Shown in pieces: positions 11,953-60,529 of a stretch of 64,000 nucleotides of DNA. Under the pieces are notes generated by a model. The model worked only from the letters and a program-made list of their open reading frames with translations. It had not been told where the DNA came from and did no database searches. The DNA is from a virus (Duplodnaviria > Caudoviricetes). The DNA lies in the IMG/VR virus record IMGVR_UViG_3300021399_000008, positions 52,329 through 116,328 of that record, one strand, 5' to 3'. How positions within the stretch are numbered: the stretch's first letter is position 1; every line of letters starts with the position of its first letter. The position numbers and the translations under genes were made by a program.

Positions 11953-12441
11953 TTATAAATGTTTGTCCTTATAGTAATCACGCATTGACTTTACTGAAAT
12001 CCTGATATCATGTTCAGGATCTGTATAGAATTTTGCTCTGGCTTCTGACCACGGAGATTCTGATTGGACACTAGCTGCGAGCCACGTAGTTCCTTTGTCT
12101 CCGTATTTCAGGATAACAGTGGATATAACGGCCCTGCCTTTAACTGGAATCTTCTCAGAATCTCCGATCATATCTGCAGCTGTGAGATTCGCCCTGTCTC
12201 TGTAGAACTCATGGAGTTCACGGCAGAAAGGTCCGATCCTCCAGGCTTCAATAGCTTCGTGGAACAGCTTCTTCCTGAAGGTTGTGTAGTACCAAGCTTG
12301 TGAATAATATACCTAGAGCTGGAGCTTCATAGGGGATATTGGCCCTGTAAGCTCGACGATGTATTTCGCGACATCAAATACTGTGACCGTATCACTATCG
12401 ATACTGATTAAATTTTTTATTCGCTTTTCTTTGTTAGCCAT
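11953..12441 (-). CDS. Panacea (DUF4065/SocA/GepA) domain protein with in-frame TAG (12313-12315)
   Basis: VFDVAKYI...ISPMKLQL*VYYSQAW...LFHEAIEAWRIGP...ESPWSEAR. Confidence 0.85.
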
Positions 12442-12442
12442 G

Positions 12443-12784
12443 TCAGCCGTTAATCTCCTCAGCTTCTTCTTCGGGATCTTTAATACCGCTCTTAATCATA
12501 TCAATGTTAAGGTTGTACCAGGCAGCTTTAATAGCATCCAGAACTGTCTGGCTCTCAATATCAAATCCTTCAGCCGAAAGCCTGTCGAGTACAGCCTTCA
12601 GTTTCTCGTCTCCGTTATGTCTGCCGTACTCAGCTTCGACTGCGGCTACAAGTACCTTTACGGAGGATAGTAAATCATTCTTGTCAAGAAAGGGACGGAT
12701 ATACCGCTTCCAGACAAAAGCTAAACATAAGCCAAAAGCGCTGATTAAAATACACACGATCAAAGTTCTGATTCCTGCATCCAT
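12443..12784 (-). CDS. holin (LL-H-like)
   Basis: N-terminal TM segment, then VAAVEAEYG...GDEKLKAV; lysis cluster. Confidence 0.7.
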   Translation of the reverse strand: MDAGIRTLIVCILISAFGLCLAFVWKRYIRPFLDKNDLLSSVKVLVAAVEAEYGRHNGDEKLKAVLDRLSAEGFDIESQTVLDAIKAAWYNLNIDMIKSGIKDPEEEAEEING

Positions 12785-12807
12785 TCGGGGATCACTCCTT
12801 ATCTGTC

Positions 12808-13113
12808 TTATCCATTTTCTGTTTCTTCAAATTGTTCAGTGTGATAGTTCGAGTAACTGAAGTTCTGGTCATCAATAGAGGTTCGTATCTTCTGTACGTT
12901 CTCGACTCCGGCCTTCCCGTAGTAACAGCCTACGGCTATCCCGGCGAAGGTTGTGGTAGCTTGAACAATATTTACGATAGCGTCCGTCTGAAAAGAAGCG
13001 AGAGGTGCATACGTGATCAGAAGAAGAGAGAGCGTAATAATTGTGAACAGCGCAACTATGGAAACCCACGCGAACTGTTTCGAGGTTTCCATCTTCTTAG
13101 ACTTCGCTGTCAT
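12808..13113 (-). CDS. two-TM membrane protein, holin-like
   Basis: METSK...two TM segments...YYGKAGVEN. Confidence 0.6.
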   Translation of the reverse strand: MTAKSKKMETSKQFAWVSIVALFTIITLSLLLITYAPLASFQTDAIVNIVQATTTFAGIAVGCYYGKAGVENVQKIRTSIDDQNFSYSNYHTEQFEETENG

Positions 13114-13599
13114 TTAGTTCGCCTCAACCGGAGCAGATTGAATCTTCGCTATAAAATCTTCCGGGATATGGTTATGCATACCATTCTCAGTATAGATTTT
13201 GTACATCCGCTCTAAACTGGTCAGTTCATTGTATGAGATTGCGTTACGTCGAACGCCGTAGTGCATGTAAGCCCACGTTAACTTTTCGTTAATCAGGGAA
13301 CATGTCTGACTGTCGAGGCTTTTAACCTGTTCTTTTATCTCATCAATACTGCCCATAATCTGGCGCATGTCTTCTTTCCGATCTTCGTCTCTGCGCTACT
13401 GTTCTTCTCTGATCTTCTTTATTTCTTCCATCACATCAGCCGGGAACTTCTTAGCCTCTTCGATATCGAGATGATGCTGGTGGATACGACGTCCAATAAC
13501 TTTAATATTTTTCCAGAAAGCAACAATAAGACCTACTCCGGCTGCGACAGCTGCGAAAGCACCCCAGCCGGAAGATATAAAACTCATAAAATCAGACAT
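13114..13599 (-). CDS. membrane-anchored lysis-region protein with in-frame TAG (13396-13398)
   Basis: ORFs 13396-13608 and 13114-13368 are one frame joined through EEQ*RRDE; N-terminal TM; YKIYTENGMH tail. Confidence 0.7.
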
Positions 13600-13631
13600 A
13601 AAGACCACTCCAATTAAGTGGTACTTCTGGT

Positions 13632-14534
13632 TTATCCAGAAATACCTGCGTTTTTTAAGGCATTTACCAGGGATCTGGCGGCCTCGATGTCTAACTCGAT
13701 TCGTACTGTACTCGAGGAATTCGGCTGATTTTCTCCAGTAATTTCTGTAGATCCGGGAGTTATCTGAGCTTCGACTAAGAACTCGGATTTAATATAGCCG
13801 TTAATCGGTCTTCCTCTGTACGTTAATTCGACTTTAGACCAGGTATCGTTTACCTGTTCAGCCGAAACAATAGTACCGACAGGAAGCTGGATAATCCTGT
13901 CGGAGTCTGTAGAAGGACGTTTACGAACGTTAACGCTCTTTCCGTCCTGAGAAGTAATCTTAGCAGTATACATCGCATCGCCACCTGTCGTTATAGGAAT
14001 TTCAATAGTTACTGTGTTCTCGTAGTTTACGTCCTTCAGCTCTCCCCAGTGTGTCCAGCCTGTAATTTTCGACTGAACTACACCTGTCTTGGAACCCTGA
14101 GCTTCGATTACTTTACCTTCTCCGATATAGAGACCGATATGATAATACCGTTTCTTAGGATCTGGGTCGTATTTAAAGACAGCTGTTCCAGGTAGGAGAG
14201 TCTTACCGTCAGTACGGTAACCATTCCGCTACTCACCCTTAGCTGAGAGAACGTTCTTAGACCAGATAGAGTTTGAGCCATGGTAGATTGTTTTACCGTG
14301 GCGTTTATAAGCCCAGACGAAGAGTCCGCTGCAGTCAGAGACTTTATGGCCGATCCACTTCTGCCCATACTGAATAGACAGGTTGTAGTCAGAGTCTCCG
14401 CTGTGTCTCTTAACCTAGTCATCGTAGCTGGCACGAGTCCAATTCTGGCCTGAGGTTCCGAGGATATAGCCGAACTCCTGTTCGAGAGCTTCTTTAAAGT
14501 CTTTAATCAGATCAGTGTACAGGATCTTTCCCAT
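13632..14534 (-). CDS. endolysin, NlpC/P60-like peptidase plus SH3b, with two in-frame TAG (14415, 14229)
   Basis: GYILG...WIGHKVSDCSGLF...YHGSNSIW...HIGLYIGEGKVIEAQG runs in frame into the SH3b domain (VNVRKRPS...GYIKSEFL). Confidence 0.88.
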
Positions 14535-14549
14535 CGCACTCACCTGACC

Positions 14550-14759
14550 TTAGGCAATAATAGATAATGTTACGTAGCCGTTATCGTCTTCGATAAACAG
14601 AGCTACGTTGTCGAGTCTGTCGCCAACAGTTTTCGCGTTAGCGACCTGGCCGTCTTTCGTAAGACTTCTGTCGATTACGAGAGAACTGGATTCAACGATC
14701 TTCTTCTCGACGATGTTTTTACAGATGGCATATGTGGGTATATCTAAAATTCTGTTCAT
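14550..14759 (-). CDS. small hypothetical protein
   Basis: IDRSLTKDGQVANAKTVGDRL tail-fibre-like repeat motif. Confidence 0.6.
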   Translation of the reverse strand: MNRILDIPTYAICKNIVEKKIVESSSLVIDRSLTKDGQVANAKTVGDRLDNVALFIEDDNGYVTLSIIA

Positions 14760-14782
14760 GCTGCACCCACCTTTACATTAAG

Positions 14783-14971
14783 TTAAATTACAACCCATTT
14801 ACGTTCTGCTGACAGTCTCCAGATAATAGAGAGGTCAGGAGTTGTACAGATAGATCCCGGAGCTAAGTGGAGCTTCTCTGCATCCACAGCCGAGATCGGT
14901 TCATTCTCCCCGAGGATTATTTCAACCTGAGGAGCAGTATTCGGAATGTCGTTTACACGGGTGATTACCAT
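14783..14971 (-). CDS. small hypothetical protein
   Basis: GAGGTG RBS; LAPGSIC...WV pattern. Confidence 0.6.
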   Translation of the reverse strand: MVITRVNDIPNTAPQVEIILGENEPISAVDAEKLHLAPGSICTTPDLSIIWRLSAERKWVVI

Positions 14972-14991
14972 AATAGGTCACCTCTTTAATT

Positions 14992-15597
14992 TTAATAAAG
15001 ATCGTCTTTGAGTTTGTTTCGTAAATCTCTGCAGCGTTTCTTTTCGTCTTCAGATAAAACTGTCGAGCTGTCCATAATTATCAGTAAAGCCTGCCACATG
15101 TACGAGAAAGCCACTATGTAAAATGTCGGATCGTAAGTATAGGCTTTTGCCTCTCTATATTTCTCAACTATAAGCCCAAGCTGTTCTTCGTAGTAGTCTT
15201 TAGTGATGTCACTGGTTTTTAGTTTTAATAATTCGCACTTTGCCTGTAGTTCAGGTAAAAATGTCCAGAAGCCTGACCCACTAGTACCGCTTATTTCAGT
15301 CATTATAATTATCGGTTTCCATACACAGGAGTTATCATTCGCCCAATCTTCCGCTTCCTGCTCGTTCAACAGATCGACATGCTGCTCATAGTACTCTTTG
15401 AACCCAGAACCAAGAGAACATAGCTCGCTAAATAATTCACGTAAACGTTTGAGTATCTTTTTCCTGAAGTCCGAAGGAGATACACCTTCTTTATTGATAC
15501 CTATAGCGTAAGTTGTATTAAAGAACTCTTCTGCGTCGTTGTTGTAGTTGACGATTTCGTTCCACCGTTTATTGAATTCCTCTTGTGATACGTACAT
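14992..15597 (-). CDS. hypothetical protein (possible moron)
   Basis: GAGGTG RBS; divergent from the RM genes. Confidence 0.65.
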   Translation of the reverse strand: MYVSQEEFNKRWNEIVNYNNDAEEFFNTTYAIGINKEGVSPSDFRKKILKRLRELFSELCSLGSGFKEYYEQHVDLLNEQEAEDWANDNSCVWKPIIIMTEISGTSGSGFWTFLPELQAKCELLKLKTSDITKDYYEEQLGLIVEKYREAKAYTYDPTFYIVAFSYMWQALLIIMDSSTVLSEDEKKRCRDLRNKLKDDLY

Positions 15598-15616
15598 GTT
15601 AATCACCTCTGGTTTG

Positions 15617-15646
15617 TTGACTCAGAAAAATCAGACGTTGTATAAT
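15617..15646 (+). promoter_or_regulatory. sigma-A-like promoter of the RM operon
   Basis: TTGACT, 18-bp spacer, TATAAT. Confidence 0.6.
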
Positions 15647-15681
15647 AATCTTCTATTGAGCGGAAGAAGGTAGGTAATACT

Positions 15682-16839
15682 ATGGAGCGGATAAATTCTC
15701 TCGAATTATTCTGCGGTACTGGAGGATTAGCGCTGGGTTTACAACAGGCAGGGTTCGACCATAAAGCTCTGATCGAATGGGATAAAGACTCCTGCGAGAA
15801 TATAAACGCGAATATTAGAGAAGGGTATGAACAAATAAAAGACTGGAATGTAATCCAGTCAGATGTCCGGGCTATAGATTTCGAAAAGCAGTTCGAAAGA
15901 ATTACTCTTGTGTCTGGTGGTCCTCCATGTCAACCTTTCTCGTTAGGAGGGAAACACCTGGCATATAATGATAAGCGGGATATGTTTCCTCAGGCTGTTC
16001 GAGCCGTAAGAGAACTGAAGCCGAAAGCTTTTATCTTTGAGAACGTAAAGGGTCTGCTGCGCCAATCCTTCAGCGAATACTTTAACTATATTATCCTTCA
16101 GCTCAAGTATCCTGAGATTGTTCCTGAAAGCGGAATGGACTGGAGAGAACACGCTGAACTGCTAAAGAAATACAGTGAAGAGAAAACTGATGGGTTAACC
16201 TACTCAGTCCAGTATAAACTTGTTAACGCTGCAGATTACGGAGTTCCACAACAAAGACATCGTGTCGTAATTGTAGGATTTAGAAGCGATCTTAATGTTG
16301 ACTGGAGTTTTCCAGAACCAACACATTCAAAGGAAGCTCTCGAATATTCGAAGTGGATAACTGGAGAATATTGGGATCGACATGGACTTCAGAAACCAGA
16401 AGCACCTAAATCAACAGAGAAAATTACAATTCAAGCACTTACAAAGAAACCGTGGAGAACTGTTCGAGATGCGTTAGCAGGTTTACCTCAACCTTCTGAA
16501 ACCAATACAGCAGTACCGAACCATGAATTTCGAGGAGGAGCAAAACAATATCCTGGCCATTCAGGAAGTGTGTTGGACGAGCCATCAAAGACAATTAAAG
16601 CCGGAGCTCATGGTGTCCCTGGCGGGGAAAACATGATTGTTCTGGATGATGGTTCGCAAAGGTATTACACAATTAGAGAGAGCGCAAGAATTCAAACGTT
16701 TCCTGACAACTATATCTTTCACGGTTCATGGACTGAGAGTATGCGACAAATAGGAAACGCTGTACCTGTACTTCTCGCAAAAACAATAGGAGAGTCTGTG
16801 TATAAGCAGTTGGAGAAGGTGGTTGATCGTGAGCAGTAA
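15682..16839 (+). CDS. DNA (cytosine-5) methyltransferase
   Basis: FCGTGG, GGPPCQPFS, ENVKG, QQRHR, RQIGNAVP. Confidence 0.95.
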   Translation: MERINSLELFCGTGGLALGLQQAGFDHKALIEWDKDSCENINANIREGYEQIKDWNVIQSDVRAIDFEKQFERITLVSGGPPCQPFSLGGKHLAYNDKRDMFPQAVRAVRELKPKAFIFENVKGLLRQSFSEYFNYIILQLKYPEIVPESGMDWREHAELLKKYSEEKTDGLTYSVQYKLVNAADYGVPQQRHRVVIVGFRSDLNVDWSFPEPTHSKEALEYSKWITGEYWDRHGLQKPEAPKSTEKITIQALTKKPWRTVRDALAGLPQPSETNTAVPNHEFRGGAKQYPGHSGSVLDEPSKTIKAGAHGVPGGENMIVLDDGSQRYYTIRESARIQTFPDNYIFHGSWTESMRQIGNAVPVLLAKTIGESVYKQLEKVVDREQ

Positions 16840-17461
16840 TACGCTGAAAATCATAAAGCCGTTTAATCCTTTAGATAAAACAAATCTCGGCGAAAGCGTA
16901 GCAGAGGCTGCGATGAAGTCACCTGTTCAAAAACTGCCGCCAGAACCTTTTATTGGAGCAGGCGTCTATATTATCTACTACGTCGGAGATAACCCTATAT
17001 ATAAGCAAATCACTGAGAAAAACAGGAACGGAAAGTTCTCGTGTCCGATTTACGTAGGCAAAGCTGTTCCAGCCGGAGCCAGAAAAGGTGGTCAAACAAT
17101 AGACGTATACACAGGAACTGCTTTATATAAGAGACTGACAGAGCATAGTGAATCAATAACAGCCGCTCAGAATTTGAAGCTTCAAGATTTTTACTGCCGC
17201 TTTCTTGTAGTGGATGATATATGGATTCCTTTGGCTGAGACATTGCTGATCGAGAAGTTTAATCCAGTATGGAATAAGGTTCTTGACGGATTTGGAAACC
17301 ACGATCCTGGCAAAGGAAGATATGAAGGAAAGATGCCGTACTGGGATTGTGTTCATCCGGGGAGAGAATGGGCAGCTAGATTGCAGCCATGCAGATACGG
17401 TAAAGCAGAACTGGAAGAGAAGGTATTAGCTTACTTAAACGAACAGGACCTGATGTTATAA
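16829..17461 (+). CDS. Eco29kI-family GIY-YIG restriction endonuclease
   Basis: GAGVYIIYY...IYVGKAVP...DFYCRF...DGFGNHDPGKGR; overlaps the MTase gene. Confidence 0.9.
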   Translation: MSSNTLKIIKPFNPLDKTNLGESVAEAAMKSPVQKLPPEPFIGAGVYIIYYVGDNPIYKQITEKNRNGKFSCPIYVGKAVPAGARKGGQTIDVYTGTALYKRLTEHSESITAAQNLKLQDFYCRFLVVDDIWIPLAETLLIEKFNPVWNKVLDGFGNHDPGKGRYEGKMPYWDCVHPGREWAARLQPCRYGKAELEEKVLAYLNEQDLML

Positions 17462-17525
17462 TCGTACCTGCGACTCGCTTCGGATAAATCCTCGCTCGTC
17501 GTAGGTTGTGAAGGAGGTGGTTCCA

Positions 17526-17603
17526 ATGAACTACTTAGATTTGAAAAGGAACTATACGATGAAAAGGAAGTTTGTGAAAAGGTACGGATTGAATAGGAAC
17601 TGA
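17526..17603 (+). CDS. 25-aa basic peptide within a TGAAAAGGAA repeat tract
   Basis: Strong AAGGAGGTG RBS; TGnTATAAT at 17454-17462. Confidence 0.4.
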   Translation: MNYLDLKRNYTMKRKFVKRYGLNRN

Positions 17604-17700
17604 AAATGTATTTAGAATCGGAAAACGAGAGTTAAAGAGCAGGAATGGTTGAAAAGGAAATAGGTTTAGTCATGTTTGATGCTAAACCGGAATGAAAAGG

Positions 17701-17743
17701 AATATCCCCTAAGCGGCAAAAGTCGCTTAGGGGATATTTTTTT
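17701..17743. terminator. terminator between convergent units
   Basis: AATATCCCCTAAGCG/CGCTTAGGGGATATT followed by a T run. Confidence 0.8.
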
Positions 17744-18026
17744 AGCTGATTTCTCTGAAGTAATAATGAACGGTAATTGTTCCATCACCGTTTTCAAGGA
17801 TTTGAGTCGAACCAAGTTCCATATTATAAAACTCATAAATATCGCGGTCAGTATCAACTTCACGAATACGAACAAAAGATTTATCAGCATCGCGAATTGT
17901 CTGAAAATCAGGGAACATTTCAGTATAATTACTGTAAACCACCGTTACGTCTGGGTTAGGGATGATACAGGTGTTAATATCAATGCGTGTCATGTCGTTA
18001 AACCAAATATAAAGTTTCTTTTCCAT
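17742..18026 (-). CDS. hypothetical tail-associated protein
   Basis: AAAGGA RBS; follows the receptor-binding candidates. Confidence 0.65.
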   Translation of the reverse strand: MEKKLYIWFNDMTRIDINTCIIPNPDVTVVYSNYTEMFPDFQTIRDADKSFVRIREVDTDRDIYEFYNMELGSTQILENGDGTITVHYYFREIS

Positions 18027-18059
18027 ACTGAAATCCTTTCTTGATAACGATAAAAGTAA

Positions 18060-19253
18060 TTAAGTGCAGAAACACAGCATAACACAGCGAGTTTCTTCAC
18101 AGGCTCTGGTTTTACCTGCGTTTCCTTCGATAGTATAATAGTAACGACTATTGTTTACGATGCCAGTTCTAGTCCACCATTCTTCTCCTGAGCTAGAGCT
18201 TGTCCATGGGTGTTTTTTTGGGAAGCCGTTTTCTTTGGAATAGTTTGAAAAAAATTCATCGTATACACATCCGCTTGTTTCCTTATGCTGAATACCAGTA
18301 GAATATCCAGTTTCTAAGTTTGAAGGAATAAAAAATCTGTCTGCGCTATATTTCGTTTCGCTATTATAAAACCAAGATTTATTAACTGTTTTTATAGCAT
18401 TTTTTAAAGCGCTATCTTGTAGTGTGTTATACATTGATTCCAGTTGTTGCCTTATATCAGATGTTTCCCATCCTTGACAATCTGTACCATATTTCATTGT
18501 TTCAGGTAAAACAAAAAATGAGCCCCATGTTATGTGCGCCTTCCCAGATCCATCTGCTAGATCATCTTTATCAATTCCGATAATACTGCATTCGATAAGT
18601 TCGCCATCAAAATCAAAAGTTTTTATATCTCCAATGGAATATTTTTCCAAATAAGAACCGTCATTTTCTGCAGCAAGTATGGTTTGTATATCGTCAGTTA
18701 TATTGCCGTAATTATTGTCTGTGTATGGATATTCGGATAAAGGCTTTAGCTTTGTCGTATTGAATCCAGTAGAGGTTTTATATGTCTCAAGTAAACTACT
18801 AGGAACAAAAACAAAACCGAATTGACCTTCGGTCATCATAGTTCCTTTAAAGAAATTACCATTTAAAGATGATAGTGATTCATTGCTAAAAACTACAGCT
18901 CTTATCGGATTTCTACTAAACACATTCCACGAATTATTTGAACTTGATTTGAAAACATTAGGAAATATTGCACTCTTTATGTTGCAATTTTGAAAACAAT
19001 AACTTTCACACGATGATAATTTAGGAAGATCCTCAGCGTCGATTGCCGTCAAACCGCTATATGCTATTCCGTATTGACCTATGGTTTCAACGTTCGGAAG
19101 ACGAATTTTTTTTAGGTTTTTCTTATGAGATAAACCGCTTGAAGCTGGAATAGTTTTCAATCCAGATTCAGTAAATTCTGTCAAAGTGTCTGATATTAAA
19201 GCGTCTAACGTACCTTGGATTCCTAAAATATCTGTAGTATTTGTATACTCCAT
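18060..19253 (-). CDS. BspA-type LRR plus DUF6273-like protein (receptor-binding candidate)
   Basis: LKKIRLPNVETIGQY repeats; WWTRT...VMLCFCT C-terminus; GGAGG RBS. Confidence 0.7.
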   Translation of the reverse strand: MEYTNTTDILGIQGTLDALISDTLTEFTESGLKTIPASSGLSHKKNLKKIRLPNVETIGQYGIAYSGLTAIDAEDLPKLSSCESYCFQNCNIKSAIFPNVFKSSSNNSWNVFSRNPIRAVVFSNESLSSLNGNFFKGTMMTEGQFGFVFVPSSLLETYKTSTGFNTTKLKPLSEYPYTDNNYGNITDDIQTILAAENDGSYLEKYSIGDIKTFDFDGELIECSIIGIDKDDLADGSGKAHITWGSFFVLPETMKYGTDCQGWETSDIRQQLESMYNTLQDSALKNAIKTVNKSWFYNSETKYSADRFFIPSNLETGYSTGIQHKETSGCVYDEFFSNYSKENGFPKKHPWTSSSSGEEWWTRTGIVNNSRYYYTIEGNAGKTRACEETRCVMLCFCT

Positions 19254-19270
19254 AAAATAACCTCCACCTT

Positions 19271-22200
19271 TCATAAACAAAAACCAACAATAACATCACA
19301 ATTATTTGTTAATGCGGTTCTGTTAGCGTACGCGGTAGCGGTCGACGTGTTCGGAACTGTTAACCCATAATTAGATTCTGCAGATTCTGCATTAATGCTG
19401 GTTCTCTACCAGAAGGATGGTACACTGCTCCCCGATGTGGTATATTTTATTCGAAGTACAACGTTACTTATTTGATCATATACTGCGCCGCTGTTTTCTA
19501 TCTGATACCATGCGCTAGCAGATTTTCTAAGTCCTAATTCTCTGCTTGAAAAAAGCCATATATCTTCGTCTGAAGTAATATCGGTTCCTGTTGGATCTTT
19601 TGTTACTTTTTTAACAGTTTTTATATTGGATTGTATGATAGTTGGAAGTTTGCTTTTAAAACTTTTGATTACGCTGCGAAGCTCAAGCTCTGAATATGGA
19701 ACAGCTTCGTCAACACTGTGTGCCCTATGTGAAAAAACGGTTGTCCGAAAAGCCCATGTTGTTTTTGCAGTAGAAGCATCATTATCAGATAATATATCTT
19801 TGTCAACACCGATTAACATTGTTTGATATCGTTGTCCGTCGGCTTCTATTGTTTTTATGGATCCTATCGGGTATTTATCTACGTTTCCAGAATTTATATT
19901 ACTTATTATAGTATCCCAATCGTCTGAAATGTCTTCAAAATAGCCTAAAGGATAACTATCGAGCGGCGCAATCATATACTTACCCCACGTAATATGGCTT
20001 CTATATAAATCTAACAACTCGGGACGTACGTAAATCGCTCCAAGTTTCTTTTCTATGAAAGTGCCGGAAATCGCGTTTACATCGTTTATTTCAGCAACAG
20101 TTGATGAATGGATTACTAAATGTTTTATAGGCTTGTTCCTCAGCTGAGCGTTGAGATTATCGGTGTTAAACTGAAGATTGTCTAATTGTGTAAACTCAAC
20201 CGTTTTTAAGTTTGAGCACGAGTTAAGCCCATTGGGGCCAATATAAGTAAAAGGACCGGAGATTTTTGTTAATTGTCCTTGACCAATCAACCCTGAATCA
20301 GCTATAGTGGAATTATTTATTGTTTCATATATTTCCAGTTTTCCCCGAATATATTTAGTCACATCGTTGCTTGCATCTGCGTATTGAGCTACACAAACTA
20401 GATTACCGACAATATTAATAGGCTCTGGTGACCATCCTGTGAACAAATAGTCATCGGTATTTCCAGTGCTGTTGTTTGTGGGTGTTGTTTCGGTATAATT
20501 CGCACTGCCGCCATACGGAACATTATTCACAGTCTGAAGCGTATTATTATCCCAGTTCTTAAACGTCACAGTAAACGTTCTGAGTTGACTCGTAAACACA
20601 GGATATAAGTCACGATCTTCAGTAACATTCTTCAATGCATCAGGATCCATTACTCCATCTACATACCGCGCCCAACCATTTGCAAATGTGAATGTATGGC
20701 TTGCGCTCTGCGGTTTGGTTGGTGTAGATCCAGTATAAGTGACAGCTGCTCCATTAGCGGAAGTTTTTGTCTGAAGCACGCTGGTTCCATCGTAATTATA
20801 GAAACGAACCGTGCAATTAATTGTGTTGTAATCTATCGTGATATCAGGATATTTATCTTTGATTTGCTTCGTAACTGCACCGCTTACAGTGTCGATATGG
20901 ATCGTTCCATAAACCTGAGCTGTGTCTACGTTAAGCCCCTGTTCGTTGCGACCGTGTAAACTGTCAAGTTTTGCTTTTATCGCAAGCAGTTCAGTCTCAT
21001 CTGCTACTGTCCAATCGAAACCAATTAAACGAAGATTACTGCCTTCAGTTAATCCGTTCACCAGAGTTTTTGTATCGATAATATTACCAATATTCTCCAG
21101 CGTAACGGTTGTCAGATTCTCTTCGGAAGCTAACACGAAGTCTGTAATATTCGGCTGATTAATAATCTCAAGGTTTGTGATCGTTCCAGGCAGATGCAGT
21201 GTTTTAATTATGCCGCCGTTAGGAAGCTTTACGCCTTTAATTGCAGTGCCATCGAAGTAAATATGTTCGATATTCTTACAACCAGATAAATCAGGAGGGG
21301 TTGTAAGCTTATCGCCATAGTTCGAACAGTTACGTACGTCTAATGTCTTCAGCAGCGTGTTATTACCAAGCGTCAGGTTCTCCAGGTTCGGGTTATTATA
21401 GTTCGGATCTGCGTCTCCAAGCTTAAGACTCTGAAGTTTTGTAGCATAGGAGAAGTTCGCGTAACCTACCAGCAGCGGAGAAAGATCGCCTACACTCGCC
21501 AGCTGAGAAGACGAGTAGATATAAACTTCGGTATCGTTCATCCTGTCGAGAGGACATGGAATTGTAACCGAAGTATTTCTTGGAGTCTTTCTGGATACCT
21601 GCTCAACGTCCTGAGTACCAGAATCCTTCGAGCCGTACTTAATTGAAACATAGATATCAGCATACGGAGTTACTGTTATATCCGCTTTGTTGTAGGCACG
21701 AAGAGTAATAATATCAGACAGCGCATTACCTGCGAGATATTTACTGTCAGTGAACTTAAGTCTGTTATAGAGCCACCACTTACGCTGTTCGGTTTTACTG
21801 CCAAGAGCCATCTCGAGATAGCTGCCGTCACATTCGTCGATCAACGGAGCGATGTATTTATAATAAGCGTCTTCGTTAAAGATCGTCTCAGGCCATTTGG
21901 ATTGATGGTCTTCGAACATCTTTTCAATAGCCTCGTAGCTAAACGCATCGTTAGCTCTCAGGTCTTTGTACATTCTCTTGATCTGAAGACCGAAAGCCTT
22001 TCGTACGTTTCTCCACTATACGCTTTCACGACCGTTGTAAACGTCCTTTTTGCCGTTATTATAAGTATCCTCGTCTTCGAGGTCGTAAGAGAAAGTCAGG
22101 TGACCTTCGTTGTTACATGTCTGTTACTTTGCTGACCTGTTCATACAGGCGGGAACGGTTCTTCTTTAAGTGGTCTGGTTACCTCTGACCGTTCCTCTCG

Positions 22201-23003
22201 CGTTTCTTTTATAGGTGATTATAGCGCAAGTTCAGACTGTTGCACCCCGGGTTTATCCGGGCCATTTCGCTCAGTCGTTGTTGGCAACGTGTGGAAAGAA
22301 TTCAACAATAAAACCACTGCATGTTTCCGCAAGAATGAGATCTGCCTTTGAGCGTTCTCACGATATTGCAGTGGTTTAATCCGGTTTGTCTTTCTGCTTC
22401 ACCGATTGAATCATAGTAGTTTACTTGACCTTCTTTATCTACGGAACATATCCTCATAGAAGTTGACGCGCAACATTCATTCGTTTTAGCTGCCCGTTTC
22501 GTTCTTGTTCCATAGTTATGATTGTAGTCATTTGTACACCACTCAAGATTTGAGACATAATTGTTTGTCTTGATCTCGTCTTTGTGATTCACTTGCGGTA
22601 AACTATCAGGATTCGGAATGAAAGCATCCGCAACTAATCTATGCACAGCGAACCATTTACTTTCGCAATGTCCGCTATAAAGTAAAACGGAAAGGTAACC
22701 TTTGGCTGTCAGATGGCCAGTGGTTATCTTTCCGATGTTTTTATTTTGTGCGTAACTTTTTAATCTTCCGCAGTTGCTGATTTCATATCTGCCTTCATAA
22801 CCTTTTATAGGTTTCCAAATTTCGTCCAATATTTAATCACCTCTCAAATTAATCTTTCACACGTTTTCCAAGGCGTTGTCCGTCACCATCGGAGTTTCGC
22901 CGTATATCAGAAATGGTTTTTACTTGGCACTAACCTCAATGCCAAGGGCCGTATCAAAGTCATACGGCTAGAACACAACTTTTTTCTTCATGCTTCGACT
23001 CAA
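19271..23003 (-). CDS. large tail/adhesion protein (969 aa spliced; exons 23003-22939 and 22115-19271; TAG at 22968, 22016, 19406)
   Basis: Spliced junction [14 protein letters not shown]; LRRs, InlB-B-like repeats; C-terminal FW*RT...VIVGFCL ending in TGA. Confidence 0.8.
22116..22938 (-). mobile_element. group I intron (823 nt) carrying a homing endonuclease
   Basis: P1 CTTGGCAT/GTGCCAAG with U-G at the splice site; P7 elements CAACGACT and CAACAGTCTGAACT; terminal G; removal restores the frame. Confidence 0.9.
22302..22829 (-). CDS. NUMOD4-HNH homing endonuclease
   Basis: [41 protein letters not shown]. Confidence 0.93.
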
Positions 23004-26640: not shown

Positions 26641-27228
26641 TTAATACGCGAAGAGGGTACTGCTTATTGTGACAGTACCTTTCTTGTCGCTTTCTACGTA
26701 GATCTTCGATTCTTCTATCGCGTCATGAAGTTCTTTCTTCGTCGCAAGCAGTTGGATCTGTTCCTGCATATCAGCGACGTCTTCCTTCGCCTGGTCGATA
26801 TCGTCCATAGCGGCATTCAGCTTATCCAGTTCGACGTTAAACGCAGCAGCAAGAGAGTTGTAGGAGGAAGTCTCTTCTTCTGTATAATAAGTCGTAGTAG
26901 GCTGAGCTCTGGGGATTACAGGAATCTTTATCGTATACACCGTATAGCCTGAACTGCCTACGGATTTGTAGAGATAGCAGAAGATTGGCTTGCCTAAGGA
27001 AAGTAAAGCGTCAGGAATCTTCAGAAGAAGAACGTTTCCTGACTGAAGTGAGCCTCCAACATTCAGTGACGTGTTCACATCTGCGCAGGAGAAGTGGCCC
27101 TGCTAAACTGAATTCGGAGCGTTAAACACTCTGAGAGTAATACCATGGTCCCACTGATAGAGCGGTGAAGATGTAATGGTATAGATATCGTTTCCAAACC
27201 TCACAGAGAGTGTGTTATTTTTTACCAT
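26641..27228 (-). CDS. BppU-like baseplate protein; TAG at 27103
   Basis: LYQWDHG lies upstream of the TAG and matches paralog 26035-26631. Confidence 0.65.
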
Positions 27229-48078: not shown

Positions 48079-48483
48079 TTAAGACTCCTCTTTCTTATCT
48101 TTTTTCGTTAAGGACACAGCGTCCTTAAGCCAACCCATAGACGCTACCGTACTGGCAGAAGCTTCGGGTATCTTAACTGCACCAGAATTAATCGCGTTAA
48201 AGATCGCGTTCCCTCCACGTTTCTTTCCAGTAGAGAACGGGTTCACACTCTCGATTACTTCTGTTATTGACTTACCAGCTTTCTCATCAAACAGCGTCCG
48301 TCCCAGCAGATTAGACTGACTTTCGAAGCTGACGCGTTTCCGCAGGACGTGCAGGACTTGATTGAAAAAGTTCACAGACATATTGTTTATCTGTTTCTCG
48401 TCGACGATTCCAAGATAGACGGCAACAATAGCGACCGCGTCTTCTAACGTTATTGGTTCGTCCTCTTGGCCTCCCGGTTTTTT
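48079..48483 (-). CDS. tail assembly chaperone, frameshifted (GT-like) portion
   Basis: The -1 frame from A AAA AAC (48483-48477) is open into ORF 48079-48381. Confidence 0.75.
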   Translation of the reverse strand, partial: KKPGGQEDEPITLEDAVAIVAVYLGIVDEKQINNMSVNFFNQVLHVLRKRVSFESQSNLLGRTLFDEKAGKSITEVIESVNPFSTGKKRGGNAIFNAINSGAVKIPEASASTVASMGWLKDAVSLTKKDKKEES

Positions 48484-48956
48484 GCGGCTTCCTCTTTCTC
48501 TTCGATCTTGTTTATACGGCGGTAGATCTCGAGGATCTTCTCGATATCCGCTGCAGTCATGTAGTCGAAGTTATCACGGACGAACTGTTCGTCGTCGAAT
48601 ACTGCGACCAGGAAGTCGAAGATAATCTGTAAGCCGTCTCGCTTCGGATCGTATACTCCCTGCTGAATCACAAAGAGTGTATCTATCGGGACATTCTCCA
48701 GAAGTCCTCTGGCTGAAGTCCAACCGATCCTGTAGTATTCAAACCGGGTCTCTTTTATTTCTCTGTCGATACCGTTTATCGTAATGATATTCTCGAGCTT
48801 ATGATCTACTGGCTGTCGATCACTTTTCTCAGAACCATTAAGGTCGGCCTTCTCGGCTTCACTCTTATTTAAGTCTGCTTCCTCGATAGCCGAAGCTTTC
48901 TACCCGTTGTCTTCAGATACTTCAGGCTACGAGTTCTTTACAGCCTTTCTGGGCAT
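48450..48956 (-). CDS. tail assembly chaperone (G-like); TAG at 48927 and 48900
   Basis: GAGGTG RBS at ATG 48956; follows the major tail gene; slippery site near the end. Confidence 0.75.
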
Positions 48957-49094
48957 AGTAATCACCTCTAGGATCTCTTCAGTTAATCATGTAATACAAT
49001 CGTAATATTTTAACGAATAAATTAATAAGTAGCTGAGGCAGGAACCCACAGCTACTTACACGGTTTTCTGTGCCGATCACCGTAAACGTCTTAT

Positions 49095-49189: not shown

Positions 49190-50008
49190 TTACGGGTTAG
49201 GGGTTTCGCCGCCTTCAGCGGGAGCAGCCGCACCCTGACCATAGGCAGCACGGAAGGTTTCCTTGGTCATATAGAACATCTCATAAGCAGCGTCATCCAG
49301 ACGGCCAGGATCCTCGCAGGATACGGTGAAGTCAAAGGTGGACGGGCTCTTATAAGAACCGGACATAGTAGGCACCTGGGTAATACGGCCATTGAACATG
49401 TGCACAACCAGGTAATGGGTAATGCCAGCGTCGGTGCAGTTCTTGCCGTCGTTGTAGACGGGGAACACAGCGTACACTTCGCCCACAGCACTTGCGCTGT
49501 TGTCGATCAGGACAGTAGGCACGTTCGTTACTTCGGTCTCGTAGGAGACACGGACAGCGCCAGTCACGGTCGCGTCGAAGGTCTACTCCTTGCCGCTCAC
49601 AGTGTACACACCGTCAGAGGCAGTCTCGCCAGCGGTCATATTAGGAATGAACACAGTGCCGTCCAGAGGAGTGGAAGGCAGGGTGATCTTGTGGGTGGTC
49701 GCGTCGGGAGTAGCTTCGGTGTAGGCGATGATGGTCTTCTTGGCAGCGTTCTCGAAGTTCTGAGCGTTAGCCATAGCCCACAGCTCAGAGTCAAACTGAC
49801 CCACGGTGATGTTCATATTCATCGTGGACTGACCAGGGATCGTACACACAGCATACTTGGACCAGCCAGCGTTAACGGAGATAGAGCCGAAATCGATATC
49901 GCTGGTGAAGTTCGTCAGCTTATCAAACACGTACTTCTTGCCGTCGCACCTCTTAAAGAATAAAAGAGGGACGTCGACGATATATCCACGTAAAGCCTGA
50001 ATATACAT
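49190..50008 (-). CDS. major tail tube protein; TAG at 49583
   Basis: Two ORFs joined by SGKE*TFDA; GC3-rich codons; position and terminator. Confidence 0.8.
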
Positions 50009-51675: not shown

Positions 51676-51990
51676 TTAACTGTCCCCTAACTTCGCTACA
51701 GGGACACCTTTATACAGAAGAACTTCAGGGAGTCGGACGATACTGTTTCCGAAGTTCAGGATCTCCCGTCTGAGTCTGAGGAACTTTTCAATTGAATCAT
51801 CGGACCATTCGTCGATAGGAGCGCCGTGGTTCATCTCAGTGAACTATGCCTCAATATCGCTGATCTAGTACATAAGATCTCTGCCTGTAGTTCTCGTATA
51901 TTCTTCGAACCCGGTACGTTTATTTACGGGCTCGTTTGTCTTTCGGTTTATATAATTTATCTCAACTTCAAAGTCCTTTAATCCGCTCAT
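51676..51990 (-). CDS. hypothetical protein with two in-frame TAG (51865, 51844)
   Basis: AAGGTG RBS; DLMY*ISDIEA*FTEM; fills an otherwise empty gap. Confidence 0.75.
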
Positions 51991-53254: not shown

Positions 53255-54238
53255 TTAGCCGATCATGTAGGCACCGATGTTCGGGATCTCGGTAGACACG
53301 AAAGCCACACCGCACTTCTCCCAGATCAGGGTTTCGAAGACCAGGTCATCGATGTTCTGAGAGGTCATGGTCTGGACGTTACCTTCGGTCACGAACTTCA
53401 GGTTCTTGGATTCGGCAGTCAGTCCACCGGGAACCAGATACAGCCAGTTCTTCTTCAGAATGGGAGTGGTGGTTCCGCTCTGGATAGCGTTAGCCAGCTT
53501 CAGAACAGGAGTGCCCTTGTACTTACCGATATAGCCGGAATCATTGTACTCGGTCTTCATAGCGTCAGAAGCATCCAGAGTCAGGGACAGCTGAGACACA
53601 GCAGAGCGGTCGCCCAGGATGTTCACGGGACCCAGGGTCTCGAAGTAATCCAGCTGAGCGTCGAGGGTATCGCCAACGATACCAGTACCAGTGCCATAGA
53701 AGGGGCTGGCGAACTGAGCGATAGCGCCATGCAGAACCTTTTCGATCTGCTGGAGCTTCAGGAGAGCATGGTTCCGGTTAGCTTCCTTAACCAGATCGGC
53801 CATGTTGATACGGTTCATCAGGAGATCCATAACCCTGATAGCAGGACGGGAAGCGATACGCTCGGTATCCACCAGAACCTGCTTATCGGCCACAAAGGAA
53901 CGATGGACGGTTTCGCCATCAGTATAGATCTTCGTGTGGATACCACCAGTGCGGGTGCTGAAAGCAGCCTTCTCGCCCCAGCCGATAGATTTAAAATCAC
54001 AGATATCATTCAGGAAATCCTACTGATTGTTCTGCTGATTCAGTTCGTTCATGGCGAAACGGATCGTCTGCGCAATCTGCTTGGCGGCATGTCCGTCATA
54101 GCCATCGTAGTTCTCGGCGAGCTCATGGGTGATGTCGTTGACTTCCTGCAGAACGTTGGAATCGATCCGCTCACCACGAGCCTGAGCCGCAATAACCTTT
54201 ACATACTTGGAATCACTATTCACTTTGATATCAGTCAT
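53255..54238 (-). CDS. major capsid protein (327 aa); TAG at 54020
   Basis: ORFs joined by NNQ*DFLNDI; GYIGKYKGTPVLKL; high-expression codon style; terminator. Confidence 0.85.
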
Positions 54239-54258
54239 CGTCTCTCACCTCGTCTTAA

Positions 54259-54684
54259 TTAGCCGACCTTACCTTCGGCAGTCACGCCATACACAGTACC
54301 CACGGCAGGGCTTTCAGGACCACAGTTGGTCAGGAACACTTCGCCAGCCTGCAGGGGATGAGCCAGAGCCTTCTCACCAGCAGGAACTTCATGGTCGCGA
54401 GTGTCGTAAGCCTGACTGTCGTCAACCTTCGTCTCGTTGTGCACGAAGTAGTACAGCTTGTCCACGGCCTGAACTTCATAGCTCATACCGGGCATATTGT
54501 CATAAATCGTCTTAGCTTCAGCGGCTACAATCTTAGCGTCGGAAGAAGCGGCAGGCAGCTTCCATGTAGGAACGCCGTCCACGATTTCCTTCACGACGAT
54601 CATGCCATCCTTCTAGGGAGCGTTAGTTCCGTTGACGGCACCGTCATAAATATAGCCGAGATGTTTTTCCATATATCCAGCCAT
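54259..54684 (-). CDS. capsid decoration/minor head protein; TAG at 54613
   Basis: GGAGG RBS; MAGYM...AP*KDGMIV; GEVFLT...VGTVYGV. Confidence 0.7.
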
Positions 54685-56039: not shown

Positions 56040-56297
56040 AGGCAATTTCTCCTTACGTAGCGTTCGGCGAATATATGGTAGGAGGACATACACCGCCTAT
56101 GCGCAGATATATATTAATAGGGGAGACCCCTAGAAATATCTAAAAGAACTACGCCCTGAAACCAGAGCGTAGCCGTTAACTGTTATTGTCGCTGTAAGTC
56201 GCGAAACACTATATGCTGGTTAGACTGTCCGTCAGTTTGATCAAGTTCGAATTATCCTGTTCGCCAGTGTTCGGATTATTTACGGGCCAGCTCCCGT

Positions 56298-57926
56298 TTA
56301 TGAGATCGAAGTATCTGAAGGCATCGATCCATCTTCATTCGACGGCTTCGGCTGTTTACCTCTGATCGCATTCTCAGGATCAGAGTTCCGTTCGTCGTCG
56401 TCCATCTCAGGTCTTCCAGGGCCATTACCTTCGCCGTCTCCGCTGTCGCTATCAGCTGAAGGGGAAACGATCTGAGAAGGAGTTGTAGCTCTCGGAGTAA
56501 GAATCTCGTCGATACCTTCGTTCAGTTCACGTTCGCGTTTCTTTGTTTCTACATCCATATCGAATCCGTTAAGTCGGGTCATCGACTCAGTAGAAACGAC
56601 ACCCTTCTGCCAGAGTTCCTTAGCTGTCTCACGGAGAGCTTTCTTCCCGGCGACATCCAGAGGAACGAAGTGGAAGAGGGGAACCTCGCTGATGTTATAA
56701 GAGCGCTCTTTAGAGAGCTCCTCTTTAATCAGGAGGTTAATCTTTGACATTGCTTCTTCTATCTCGCGGCGCATCATATCGATACGGGCTGTGACAGTCT
56801 GAACAGATACCTGGGCTGAGGCAAAGGTAGATCCATCTTCTGACTGACCTGTGACAAGAATACCGCTGACACCGCCAGCTGAGAGAATATCATTATTTAC
56901 GTCCCTGTACTTATCATACTGGTAGAGGTCGTCGACATCAATCTTTATAGCCTGAGGCTTCGCGAAGATCGAGCTGACAACGAGAGGGAACCCGGACATA
57001 CCTTTCGCGAAAAGGTCTCTGAGTTCGCCATATTCTTCGGCTGAGGATTCAAAGTCCATACCTTTCTTCTCGTCGCCGTATCCTACCCAGACAAAAGAGT
57101 GGATAGCCAGATTCAGCATAGCCTTCTCGTACCGACCAATAAGATCCTTCTTCGCGAGGGACTCAAGGGCTGAGAGAATAAAAGGATAGGCGTACCGCTG
57201 GTATGTAGGTTTCGGACCCTGTATTACTATCGTGTACTTCGGGTTCAGCTGTACATACTGGTCGCACCTGTTCAGCCCTTCGACTACTTCAGGCGGGAAA
57301 CCTTTAAAGTAGGTTTCGAGTTCGTTGTCCTTAATCCAGTTCTCTTTAACGTTATAGGCTTTCTGCCGCCACTCTGAGTAGATACCGGAACAGTCGAAGT
57401 CGACGATAGGAGTACCGCCGAAAGAAACGTTTCCGATAGAGCACTTCTGGATAGGAAGAGAAACAGGGACGCCGTTCATGAAGTAAATGAAGCAGTTATT
57501 ATAGGTAGCCTACTCAGCTGCCCAGGACTGAAGACGTTCTCTGAGTCGGATCTTCTTATAGTATTCCTCGTAGAAGTCTTTCGTCTTTACGTTCCCGGCT
57601 TCAAGGAACCAATCGTCTGTAAGGTACGGCTGATAGATATGATAGACGATACCGTGAACAATCGGGTCTGCGTCTTTATAGTAGTCAGCGAGTTCGAAGA
57701 ACTTCTTTATATTCGCTTCCTTATTCGCGAGAAGAAGCTTATAGTCGTACCCTTTTATATAGCCAGTAATAGGGGCACTGTAGATGTTCCCTGTATTCGA
57801 GTAGGGTTCAAGGATCTGAGCCTCCTGCTAAGAAGAAGCTCCGACGATTCTCTTTGTTGGACTCGGGCTGACAGAGGAGCCAGGCCGCTGGCCTAAGACT
57901 CTGCGAATATTGTCGAATACACCCAT
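56298..57926 (-). CDS. portal protein (542 aa); TAG at 57828 and 57510
   Basis: Follows terminase; DPIVHG; DILSAGGVSG; GRPEMDD tail. Confidence 0.85.
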
Positions 57927-57947
57927 CGGCCTACACTCTCCTTTTTC

Positions 57948-59606
57948 TTATAGACGACCGACAGCTCCGAGAGATCTTTTCCCGGAACGCTGTTTGCGCC
58001 TCTTGTTTTCTAGTTCGAGTTCTGAGATATAGTCATTACCCATCGCTAAGGCTGAATAGCGGTCCTTATGTTGTCCGACTTTCTTTACGTCATAGAGGAC
58101 GTTAGAGCCAGCTCCAGGTTTCGCTACGATATTCGACATCTCAACCTGAAGGGCATCGGTGTTATAGAAGACGGCTAACTGCTGACGGGCTAAGTCTCTG
58201 GATTCCTTATTAGCTTCGTCGATCTTCTGTTTTATTTCAGAGGAAGGTTTCGGAAGCTCAAGAGTCTTCTGTTCCAGAGCGACACGAAGGTTATTATAGA
58301 TTCTCTGGTTCAGGGCATTTACGGCTCTGAAAGGATGGAGAATCTGGACGGCATGAGGATTATAGTTCGGCTTATCGTCGACGACCCACGGAGGATATTC
58401 CTTCCCGGTCGTAAGGTCTGTAAACTCTGAGTCGAGGAACTTATCGAAAGCGTCGCCTATACCCCTGGCGTCGTAGATTATCTTTTCGGTATTCGGGAAA
58501 CGGAGATAGAGTTTACGGATAAACGTAGCTAACTCATCGAGCCCGTTACCGTTAAAGGCTGCGATATACACAAGCTTACGGTGGAAGGAGCCATCGTTCC
58601 TTTCGGTAAACTTCAGGACAACAGCTACGGCATTATCGGAACCTTTCGCCTGAGAGGTAGCTATATCCAGACAGATAACGTATCTGGAGGTAGAGTTCTT
58701 AGGCTGAGTAAGTTCGATAGTGTCGAGGGTTCGGCAATCCGAAACCATCGAGTAAGGGAAGGCTGAGTCAGAAGTACCACCTACGAAGATCGAGCCGAAG
58801 TTCATGTCCCAGATAATAGAGGGCATCGTTTTCCGCTGTTCCTCAAAGTAGGACTTCGTGTTTATTCCTTCCTCTATAGCCGCTAAGTAGTCGAGGGCAC
58901 AGGCGAACTTACGGGTATCGCCGTTAGCCTGAGCATTCAGAGTCTCCATAAACTTCTCATAATACGGGTTACTCTTCTCACAGCCGGAGGAGATCATGAG
59001 GATTTTGGACATCGGTTCATTATAGGTATTGTGCCGAGCTAAAGGTCTGACCCAGTTCGTCATAGGAAGCGCGAGATCCTGGAACTTCTGAAGGTCAACG
59101 TGTAAGGCTTCGTCGACGATCAGGAAGTTTGTACGCTGGCCGACACCCTGATCGATATTACCGGACCAGGCATAGGAACCGTTCTTCCATGTAGCGCAGG
59201 TAAAGTCAGCTGAGACAGAGATAAGGTCACGGGTATTCTCGCGCATAAGTTCCGAAGTTATACCGATATCGTTCTGGGCTATGTCCTTCTAGTTACGGAG
59301 GACAAGTGTAGCGTATCTGGTATTTTCTGAACAGATAAAGATCTTAGACCCAGGATAGAGAACGGCACATACGTGGACGAGAAGGGCTGTAATAAAAGTC
59401 TTCCCATAGCCTCGAGACCAGACGACAGTAGAGAAGTCTGAGTTCCCGATAGCTCTGACGGCTACAGCCTGAGAAGGGAAGAGCTTTACTGTCGGGATCG
59501 TATCCCTGATAAAGATATCCCAATGAGTCCTGTAGTAGGCGATAAGCTATCCGAGGTTCTCATGGATACTGTCGATATTAATACGCTTCAGTACAGTTTC
59601 GGCCAT
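57948..59606 (-). CDS. terL: terminase large subunit (552 aa); TAG at 59547 and 59289
   Basis: Walker A SRGYGKT lies between the two TAGs; Walker B FLIVDEA; LDIA and HKDRYSA nuclease motifs. Confidence 0.92.
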
Positions 59607-59617
59607 ACGGATCCTCC

Positions 59618-60529
59618 TTAACTGTCGGAGCCGATAGCCGCGACGATGTGGTTATAGCGCTGAAGGATACGATCTATATCGTCCTCAGGGAAGACAACTC
59701 CGTTCGGGACGTTATAGTCCGAGAGTTCTAGGGAGAGGACAGCCTGAGCCCACGAACCTTCCTCTTTCTTCGAGTCGTCTTTCGCTCTCTTACAGGCTGC
59801 AAGGTTCGTAGACTTCATCATCATATCGTACGTAGAGAGAGCGTCCTTAACGACCTGGAAGTCACACTTCCCAGCCCGGTAGAGATCCTGAGCGTTCGCG
59901 GCAATAAGAGACTGTACGGCGAGCTTACGGATCTGGTCCTCTAAGGCTGCGTCGTTCAGGTTATCGATATTCAGGTCCCGGCAATACTTCTCAAGGTACT
60001 CGAGTTCATGGGCTGAGTAGTGGCCGTTATAGACTGAGTTGTAGTACTTCTTATCCGGGTCCTTCTCTTCGATTACATAGCCGAGGACTTTAGCCTCAGG
60101 ATAAGGAATGTGCCGACCGTCCTTATCTTCATGGGGTTCGTATTTATAGTTACTGACCTAGAAGTTAGGGATGTGCTGGCAAGTAACACGATCGAGAAGA
60201 ATCTTCTTTCTGTCCTGACCGGAGTGTTTATACGTGTCGTTCTGGAGACACTTCTTTTCGGCTACGGCACGGGCACTGTCCCAGATCGTTTCGGACCAGG
60301 CTCTGTTGTTTTCCCAGAAGTACTCACGAACCTGGTCTTTCGTAGCGAGGTGGCTGACACAGTCACGGCACCACAGGTCTTTCCCGAGGTTAGACTCGAA
60401 GCCGATGTTATCGTAGAAGTCTGTACTCTCGTTCCGTGGCTTGCCACAACGGGAACAGTTTTTTGTACGCTACTCGTTCGCTTTAATCTTTCGGGGTTTC
60501 TGGGGGATAACGTTTTTTAATTCAGCCAC
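59618..60529 (-). CDS. zinc-finger protein upstream of terL (possible small terminase); TAG at 60470 and 60158
   Basis: CSRCG...DFY...WCRDC; one frame from GTG 60529 to TAA. Confidence 0.7.

Follow-up and report, generated by a model that had tools for sequence, protein, structure and literature searches.

The late genes of the phage analyzed here raise the question of why in-frame TAG codons should be both scarce and gathered near the starts of the genes which carry them. These genes lie in a 64,000-nt stretch, referred to as the window, of the IMG/VR record IMGVR_UViG_3300021399_000008 (116,328 bp; the window is its bases 52329-116328) and form a virion and lysis operon of 35 open reading frames (ORFs) and 14,881 codons, in which every ORF terminates with TAA or TGA. 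A large terminase, a portal protein, a probable head protein, a tape-measure-like ORF, Dit-like and YomG-like tail proteins, an endolysin and a weak match to a holin were recognized among its products (Table 1). An earlier note on this DNA, written from the letters alone, had described TAG in the virion and lysis genes as sparse and 5′-biased and had proposed that it acts as a switch and not as an ordinary Leu codon, such that leaky late transcripts in a lysogen would yield only short peptides.

TAG codons were counted on a curated ORF set in which the ORF of 4802 codons was treated as one gene. TAG occurs 28 times in 17 of the 35 ORFs and makes up 2.5% of the 1,142 Leu-type codons, hence it is sparse, and its 5′ bias proved stronger than had been claimed. 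Thirteen of the 28 TAGs fall in codons 2-50 where 3.3 are expected, 21 fall in codons 2-150 (9 expected), and the mean relative position of TAG is 0.27 vs. 0.49. The skew was found at p ≤ 5e-5 under each of four null models, namely against all codons, against Leu codons, in a within-gene permutation of Leu codons and in a conservation-stratified permutation, and the comparison with other Leu codons bears out that TAG is not placed as an ordinary Leu codon. TAG density was 0.76, 0.27, 0.04 and 0.08% in codons 2-50, 51-150, 151-300 and beyond 300, respectively, and the density gradient along the genes is 25-fold. The first TAG lies at or before codon 152 in 16 of the 17 genes and at or before codon 50 in 11 of them, a recount which replaces the 15 of 20 genes reported earlier. 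Second and later TAGs are also 5′-skewed given the first (p = 0.002 for this phage, p = 0.0002 for its relatives), and the number of TAGs per gene within the first 150 codons is Poisson-like, with 0, 1 and 2 TAGs in 20, 9 and 6 genes, respectively.

If TAG were simply a very slow rare codon, it might gather in the first 30-50 codons as part of a translational ramp, where rare codons are favored for ribosome spacing. A mild enrichment of this kind was observed for the rare codons CCC and CGG, which have 23% and 20% of their occurrences in the first 50 codons as against 12% expected. TAG, however, is an extreme outlier among all codons, with 46% in this interval and an excess reaching to about codon 150, whereas the rare Leu codon CTA has only 15% there and TTG is not among the most 5′-enriched codons. 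As TAG shows no such effect in the recoded phage phAss-1 (see below) either, a ramp is a very unlikely cause of the skew.

Reading through TAG restores full-length conserved proteins (terminase, portal, head and tail) which align end to end with relatives using the standard code. The terminase, for example, matches PHROG families over residues 16 to 534, and its standard-code ORF begins only at codon 121. For the residue which TAG specifies, related loci were compared, of which 80 surround the terminase and 26 the tail gene. The column of terminase TAG codon 106 contains Leu in 96 and Ile in 23 of 119 homologues (~50% identity), and TAG codon 73 of the head protein corresponds to Leu in 50 of 50 relatives. 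Codon 50 of the tail protein aligns with Leu (18), Ile (4) and Phe (1), codon 152 of the Dit-like protein with Val (12), Ile (9) and Leu (1), and codon 24 of the 141-aa head-module protein with Val (43), Ile (7) and Leu (3), in a column that is Val, Ile or Leu in 54 relatives. A likelihood ranking of the possible meanings placed Leu at the top, slightly above Ile, Val and Met.

One suppressor gene was identified in the genome by ARAGORN and Rfam, a tRNA(CUA) of 77 nt with A73, a D stem of 3 bp and a variable arm that is short. It shares 77% identity with the tRNA(UAA) next to it and resembles a paralogue of this neighbor. Genetic code 15, in which TAG specifies Gln, was considered and rejected, since Leu or other aliphatic residues occupy the columns and Gln scored ~8 nats lower than Leu, and in view of the identity to tRNA(UAA), the A73 and the 3-bp D stem of tRNA(CUA). 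It has to be said against Leu that the alignments by themselves do not discriminate between it and Ile, Val or Met. The synthetases for the latter three recognize the anticodon and leucyl-tRNA synthetase (LeuRS) does not; for this reason, and because of the build of tRNA(CUA), Leu is preferred over the other three. It is concluded on these grounds that TAG is a Leu sense codon which is read via the phage's own tRNA(CUA), in keeping with what the earlier note had assumed. All three tRNA genes of the genome lie upstream of the window, and none was found within it. We were unable to identify a release factor or class-I aminoacyl-tRNA synthetase gene in the phage genome or, with Rfam, a theta or HDV-like ribozyme near the suppressor tRNA, and a promoter and terminator scan around the tRNA genes returned nothing beside them.

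A terminal overlap of 127 bp indicates that the record is a circular assembly, and IMG/VR lists it with direct terminal repeats and 100% completeness. Since a tyrosine integrase is encoded the phage is considered temperate, and the source would appear to be a temperate phage of 116 kb from Clostridia of the rumen or gut. Relatives were found in metagenome-assembled genomes (MAGs) of Lachnospiraceae, Acutalibacteraceae and other Clostridia, and the Shine-Dalgarno motifs of the phage are strong, which is compatible with Clostridia hosts. A host that itself reads TAG as Leu, which the earlier note had named as fatal to its proposal, is unlikely given these relatives, the phage's own suppressor, and the early genes, most of which are free of TAG and four of which seem to terminate with it. 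One of these four encodes DNA polymerase III alpha; a TAA follows its terminal TAG four codons on, and this nearby back-up stop would limit the damage under an active suppressor.

An artefact of gene calling would also place TAG at the 5′ end, if ORFs were over-extended under the recoded model beyond their true starts or if TAGs had arisen by chance in unconstrained N-termini. Over-extension does happen, as the terminase ORF of one relative (G002) picks up two spurious upstream TAGs and upstream in-frame TAGs were seen in several early genes of this phage. In the late operon, however, the TAG columns are crossed by alignments to standard-code relatives, and Pfam and PHROG matches span them (YomG_N 37-108, SocA 40-131, NlpC/P60 67-161). 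The recoded starts are preceded by Shine-Dalgarno motifs and lie 1-30 nt from the previous stop, and the segments from the start to the first TAG have in-frame codon usage in 16 of 16 cases (summed log-likelihood ratio >320 nats). In the conservation-stratified permutation, which covered 15 genes with good homologue sets, 9 of 15 TAGs were at or before codon 50 (2.0 expected) and 14 of 15 at or before codon 150 (5.7 expected); since the skew survives this test, looser N-termini are not its cause. The skew also remains when codons 1-50 are left out. Finally, the TAGs are identical across seven near-identical contigs from other samples, save that strain L122 has ACC in place of TAG codon 2810 of the giant ORF. 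An artefact is accordingly extremely improbable.

The earlier note had suggested a comparison with related phages, and in this comparison the skew recurs at sites that are not shared. Most relatives use the standard code; several are TAG-recoded, at sites none of which is shared with this phage. In the Leu-type relatives (L020/L024/L130, which belong to genome G001, L063 and L071) Leu accounts for nearly all residues in the TAG columns, e.g., 63 of 63 and 67 of 67, and G001 encodes an 84-nt class II, long-armed tRNA(CUA) which is nearest to its tRNA-Leu(UAA). In G001, which has ~15 tRNAs, ARAGORN also reported one tRNA-like gene whose 'anticodon' is abnormal in having two bases. In a second group (L013, L027 and L025/L079/L125, the last three belonging to G002, a complete record of 107 kb) the TAG columns are Ser 47/Ala 7, Ser 50/Pro 13, Ser 54/Asp 5 and similar. 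G002 encodes an 89-nt class II tRNA(CUA) with 78% identity to the adjacent tRNA-Ser(UGA), and this sister lineage appears from its columns and tRNA to read TAG as serine, so that one family would hold two meanings of TAG.

In a quick tree of the terminases, the Ser group forms one clade and L063 and L024 another, L071 falls elsewhere, and this phage stands alone on a long branch; the terminase of relative P0003 has 77% identity. The position of L071 apart from L063/L024 suggests repeated independent recoding. The skew is present in all recoded relatives when their sites are anchored by homology, with mean relative positions of 0.15-0.41 vs. about 0.5. After pooling of unique sites, 24 of 40 Leu-type sites (12.7 expected, p = 2.5e-4) and 16 of 24 Ser-type sites (8.7 expected, p = 2e-3) are at or before codon 150. 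The skew is thus seen again in relatives that were recoded independently, of which two lineages are Leu-type and one is Ser-type.

The explanation which we favor, with moderate confidence, is that selection acts against premature stops according to their position, under a suppression which is incomplete or conditional. The skew implies that selection weighs a TAG by the amount of protein made before it, which is sensible only if TAG sometimes stops translation. TAG would be readable only by the single tRNA(CUA), and because the phage has one suppressor and neither a release factor nor a synthetase gene, this tRNA would have to compete unaided with host release factor 1. Reading would then be conditional, absent before the tRNA is made and probably incomplete thereafter, and each TAG would be a potential premature stop. 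Failure at a late position would waste a long translation or free a long, possibly assembly-poisoning fragment, selection would purge such TAGs, and TAGs would persist only in roughly the first 150 codons. It is in favor of such a cost that rare codons other than TAG show no such skew, and that the skew is likewise absent from the unrelated phAss-1, which has 277 TAGs and three suppressor genes. A translational gate would follow as a consequence. About 10,000 of the 14,881 late codons sit behind a TAG, and roughly two thirds of the operon, including terminase, portal, head, tape measure, tail and endolysin, would be closed off by an early TAG; without the tRNA the gated genes would give merely peptides of 12-151 residues. 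This gate is real by construction and may itself be adaptive.

Whether the TAGs exist because of the gate is another matter. Under an adaptive lock, 5′ TAGs would have been positively selected so that late transcripts made in a lysogen, or at an early time of infection, yield only short harmless peptides and the lytic program depends on tRNA(CUA). A lock of this kind was proposed by Borges et al. (10.1101/2021.08.26.457843) for recoded prophages, so the suggestion made for this DNA was a published hypothesis and not a new inference. It fits a temperate phage in which TAG is absent from the integrase (read from 10097), the restriction-modification pair and most early genes, as expected of a partition of the genome by code, and in which key lytic genes (terminase, portal, head protein, tape measure, endolysin) carry early TAGs. 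The first three genes of the operon have two TAGs each, and many TAGs are at variable non-Leu columns, as though amber mutations had settled at tolerant sites. The claim that only short peptides would be made stands for 16 of the 17 TAG-bearing late genes, which are blocked by codon 152. That the pattern exists as a lysogeny lock is weakened, however, as a single-lock model does not predict that later TAGs are skewed given the first, the Poisson-like presence of TAG per gene gives no sign of targeting, and 18 of the 35 late ORFs, the putative holin among them, are TAG-free. For these three reasons we favor the cost of premature stops, and hold the lock to be a possible but rather doubtful cause of the skew.

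Further observations also sit poorly with a lock. At least two plus strand genes of the replication module, outside the window and beside DNA polymerase III alpha, carry homology-supported 5′ TAGs, which lie within the region aligned to relatives or a Pfam domain. Virion and lysis genes are therefore not the only ones to use TAG; the codon is concentrated in them as the earlier note described, but strict confinement to them did not hold. No promoter is evident beside tRNA(CUA). In a variant of the lock, early TAGs might also cause polarity on downstream genes. Rho-dependent polarity is well known, and Newton and colleagues reportedly described in 1965 a polarity gradient of nonsense mutations in which the promoter-proximal ones were the most polar. 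The late mRNA is neither C-rich nor G-poor and rut-like windows amount to only 5.5%, which gives no particular support for Rho loading and neither supports nor excludes Rho polarity.

Some points weigh against a cost of premature stops as the cause. The loss of yield per TAG would be equal at any position, and the model needs waste or fragment toxicity to outweigh this loss. The base after TAG (A 11, C 8, G 7, T 2) shows no significant bias to weak termination contexts and does not differ significantly from the base after other Leu codons. In addition, the family has conserved giant ORFs of the tape-measure-like kind (4,200 to >4,800 codons), and in those of G001 (18 TAGs) and G002 (22 TAGs) the TAGs are evenly spread, unlike those of other late genes. 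Either the cost of TAG must be small in the giant ORFs of these relatives or the explanation is incomplete. The giant ORF of G002 appears to cross the ends of its record.

The individual genes are listed in Table 1. The codon positions which the earlier note had named for the 1448-aa and 999-aa proteins, the terminase and the portal protein were all correct, as were the 2001-codon stretch of the tape measure without TAG and the absence of TAG from the restriction-modification genes and from the radical SAM gene, for which the match is weak. An ORF that had been called a non-virion RNA polymerase is TAG-free as stated; the label was not confirmed, since Pfam gave no match and the sole PHROG match is of unknown function. 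Five of the seven TAGs beyond codon 150 are in the giant ORF of this phage. Splitting this ORF at TAG codons 2810 and 3745 was considered and rejected, as no TAA or TGA occurs over its 4802 codons, codon 2810 is ACC in strain L122 and relatives have ORFs of more than 4200 codons. Apart from the giant ORF, a clearly 3′ TAG occurs only in the 900-aa fibre-like protein (codon 856), in a stretch of low GC content (0.355) in the tail module, which encodes in addition a BspA-type leucine-rich repeat (LRR) protein and an HNH endonuclease and looks like a recently exchanged host-range cassette. Two start codons are candidates for the integrase: ATG 10034 has a good Shine-Dalgarno motif and a TAG at codon 10, and ATG 10097 has neither. 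The choice decides whether the integrase itself needs the suppressor.

Table 1. Coordinates of the features discussed. Positions refer to the window unless preceded by genome (source record) or by the name of a contig or relative.
Feature	Position	Strand	TAG codons (positions) and remarks
Late (virion and lysis) operon	11953-60529	-	
303-aa head-module protein (phrog_3314)	59618-60529	-	20 (60470-60472), 124 (60158-60160)
Large terminase, 552 aa	57948-59606	-	20 (59547-59549), 106 (59289-59291)
Portal protein, 542 aa	56298-57926	-	33 (57828-57830), 139 (57510-57512)
141-aa head-module protein	54259-54684	-	24 (54613-54615)
Probable major head protein, 327 aa	53255-54238	-	73 (54020-54022)
104-aa protein	51676-51990	-	42 (51865-51867), 49 (51844-51846)
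272-aa virion structural protein (phrog_2729)	49190-50008	-	142 (49583-49585)
171-aa protein, weak tail-chaperone match	48450-48965	-	13 (48927-48929), 22 (48900-48902)
Giant tape-measure-like ORF, 4802 codons	32768-47176	-	97, 588, 687, 796, 2810 (38747-38749), 3745 (35942-35944)
2001-codon stretch of giant ORF	38747-44752		without TAG
Distal tail protein (Dit-like), 396 aa	31603-32793	-	152 (32338-32340)
1448-aa tail protein (YomG_N and prophage-tail domains)	27245-31591	-	50 (31442-31444), single, in conserved N-terminal domain
195-aa protein	26641-27228	-	42 (27103-27105)
999-aa tail-fibre-like protein (phrog_14959)	23022-26021	-	20 (25962-25964), single
900-aa fibre-like protein	19271-21973	-	856 (19406-19408)
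Endolysin (NlpC/P60 and SH3), 303 aa	13632-14543	-	43 (14415-14417), 105 (14229-14231)
164-aa protein	13114-13608	-	71 (13396-13398)
Putative holin (weak PHROG match)	12443-12784	-	without TAG
162-aa SocA/Panacea-domain (antitoxin-like) protein	11953-12441	-	43 (12313-12315); last gene of operon
Low-GC stretch	17700-22900	-	
BspA-type LRR protein	18060-19280		
HNH endonuclease	22302-22829		
C5 DNA methylase	15682-16839	+	TAG-free; opposite strand within late region
Eco29kI-type restriction endonuclease	16823-17461	+	TAG-free; opposite strand within late region
Tyrosine integrase	10097-11305	+	TAG-free from ATG at 10097
Weak radical-SAM match	4137-5108		TAG-free
ORF, PHROG match of unknown function	61852-63999		TAG-free
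tRNA(UAA)	genome 39146-39220		
tRNA(CUA)	genome 39313-39389		
tRNA(UAU)	genome 44407-44481		
Metallophosphoesterase	genome 25927-27153 (L153:928-2154)	+	51
DNA polymerase III alpha	genome 28018-31407 (L153:3019-6408)		ends in TAG
RemA-like protein	genome 31776-32333 (L153:6777-7334)	+	6, 15, 56
tRNA(CUA) of G001	L089:538-621		
tRNA-like gene of G001	L085:1575-1648		two-base 'anticodon'
Giant ORF of G001	G001 3948-16622		
tRNA(CUA) of G002	L086:2443-2531	-	
Giant ORF of G002	G002 about 100300 through record end to 12675		

Phages with recoded stop codons and a suppressor tRNA of their own are said to have been described by Ivanova and colleagues in 2014. By its in-frame TAG in conserved genes, its own tRNA(CUA) and the concentration of TAG in late genes (except the two replication-module genes) the phage analyzed here is of the same kind. 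Early ambers of classical amber mutants, which are grown on suppressor hosts, are null without a suppressor; these were laboratory mutations, whereas the ambers of this phage are natural, fixed and paired with a phage-borne suppressor. TAG also specifies Leu in NCBI codes 16 and 22, of chlorophycean and Scenedesmus mitochondria. The codon meaning is the same, but these codes are organelle-wide, involve no conditional decoding and are unrelated to phages.

The closest parallels are with phages that read TAG as Gln. The temperate phages Garnet and Topaz, for which the lysis-lysogeny lock was put forward (Borges et al., 10.1101/2021.08.26.457843; later Nat Microbiol), also have a phage tRNA(CUA), structural and lysis genes with in-frame TAG and a TAG-avoiding integrase, and their host uses the standard code, as the host of this phage may do. 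Their TAG aligns with Gln and fills most genes, however, while here it means Leu, occurs no more than 28 times in about 14,900 late codons and lies mostly in the first ~150 codons, and the Garnet and Topaz report makes no mention of Leu, Ser or within-gene position. PhAss-1 (OQ749652, 'Caudoviricetes code 15 clade') is similar in its size of ~136 kb, in TAG in its terminase, portal and tape-measure genes and in having suppressor tRNAs of its own, and differs in that TAG is Gln and its in-frame TAGs have a mean relative position of 0.46-0.52. For this control our own ORF calls, scored by codon usage, were used as the deposited annotation looked fragmentary. The crAss-like and Lak phages with code 15, which were validated by metaproteomics (PMC9523058), likewise have a late-gene block in an alternative code read by a phage suppressor tRNA; they differ in using Gln instead of Leu and in having Bacteroidota hosts, and a positional skew is unreported for them in the searchable papers. 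No report of TAG as Leu or Ser in phages, or of positional bias of recoded codons, was found in the searchable literature, outside of which many subscription papers lie. The type of system and the lock hypothesis are thus already published, and what is new relative to that literature is the reading of TAG as Leu or Ser and its 5′ confinement.

For annotation these findings carry a warning. Translation with code 15 puts Gln where this phage family uses Leu or Ser, and sparse 5′ ambers truncate standard-code gene calls, so that the terminase of this phage is present in a public protein set as a fragment of 432 aa. Recoding of stop codons is known in phages and has been proposed to set the timing of late genes, but direct sequence evidence that a recoded codon still acts as a stop had been thin, and the replicated skew supplies such evidence. 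The within-gene position of recoded codons is a simple and scalable statistic by which complete recoding can be told from leaky or conditional recoding and the lock can be put to the test. We suggest only tentatively that the 5′ confinement may mark an early, leaky stage of code change, in which a new anticodon-independent suppressor of Leu or Ser type allows ambers to become fixed where failure is cheap, creating an all-or-none, tRNA-dependent gate that selection can later exploit, and in which ambers spread as suppression improves, for which phAss-1 and the giant ORFs of the relatives would be examples. If this is true, one family with at least three independent events (two Leu, one Ser) would directly show the path of a code change.

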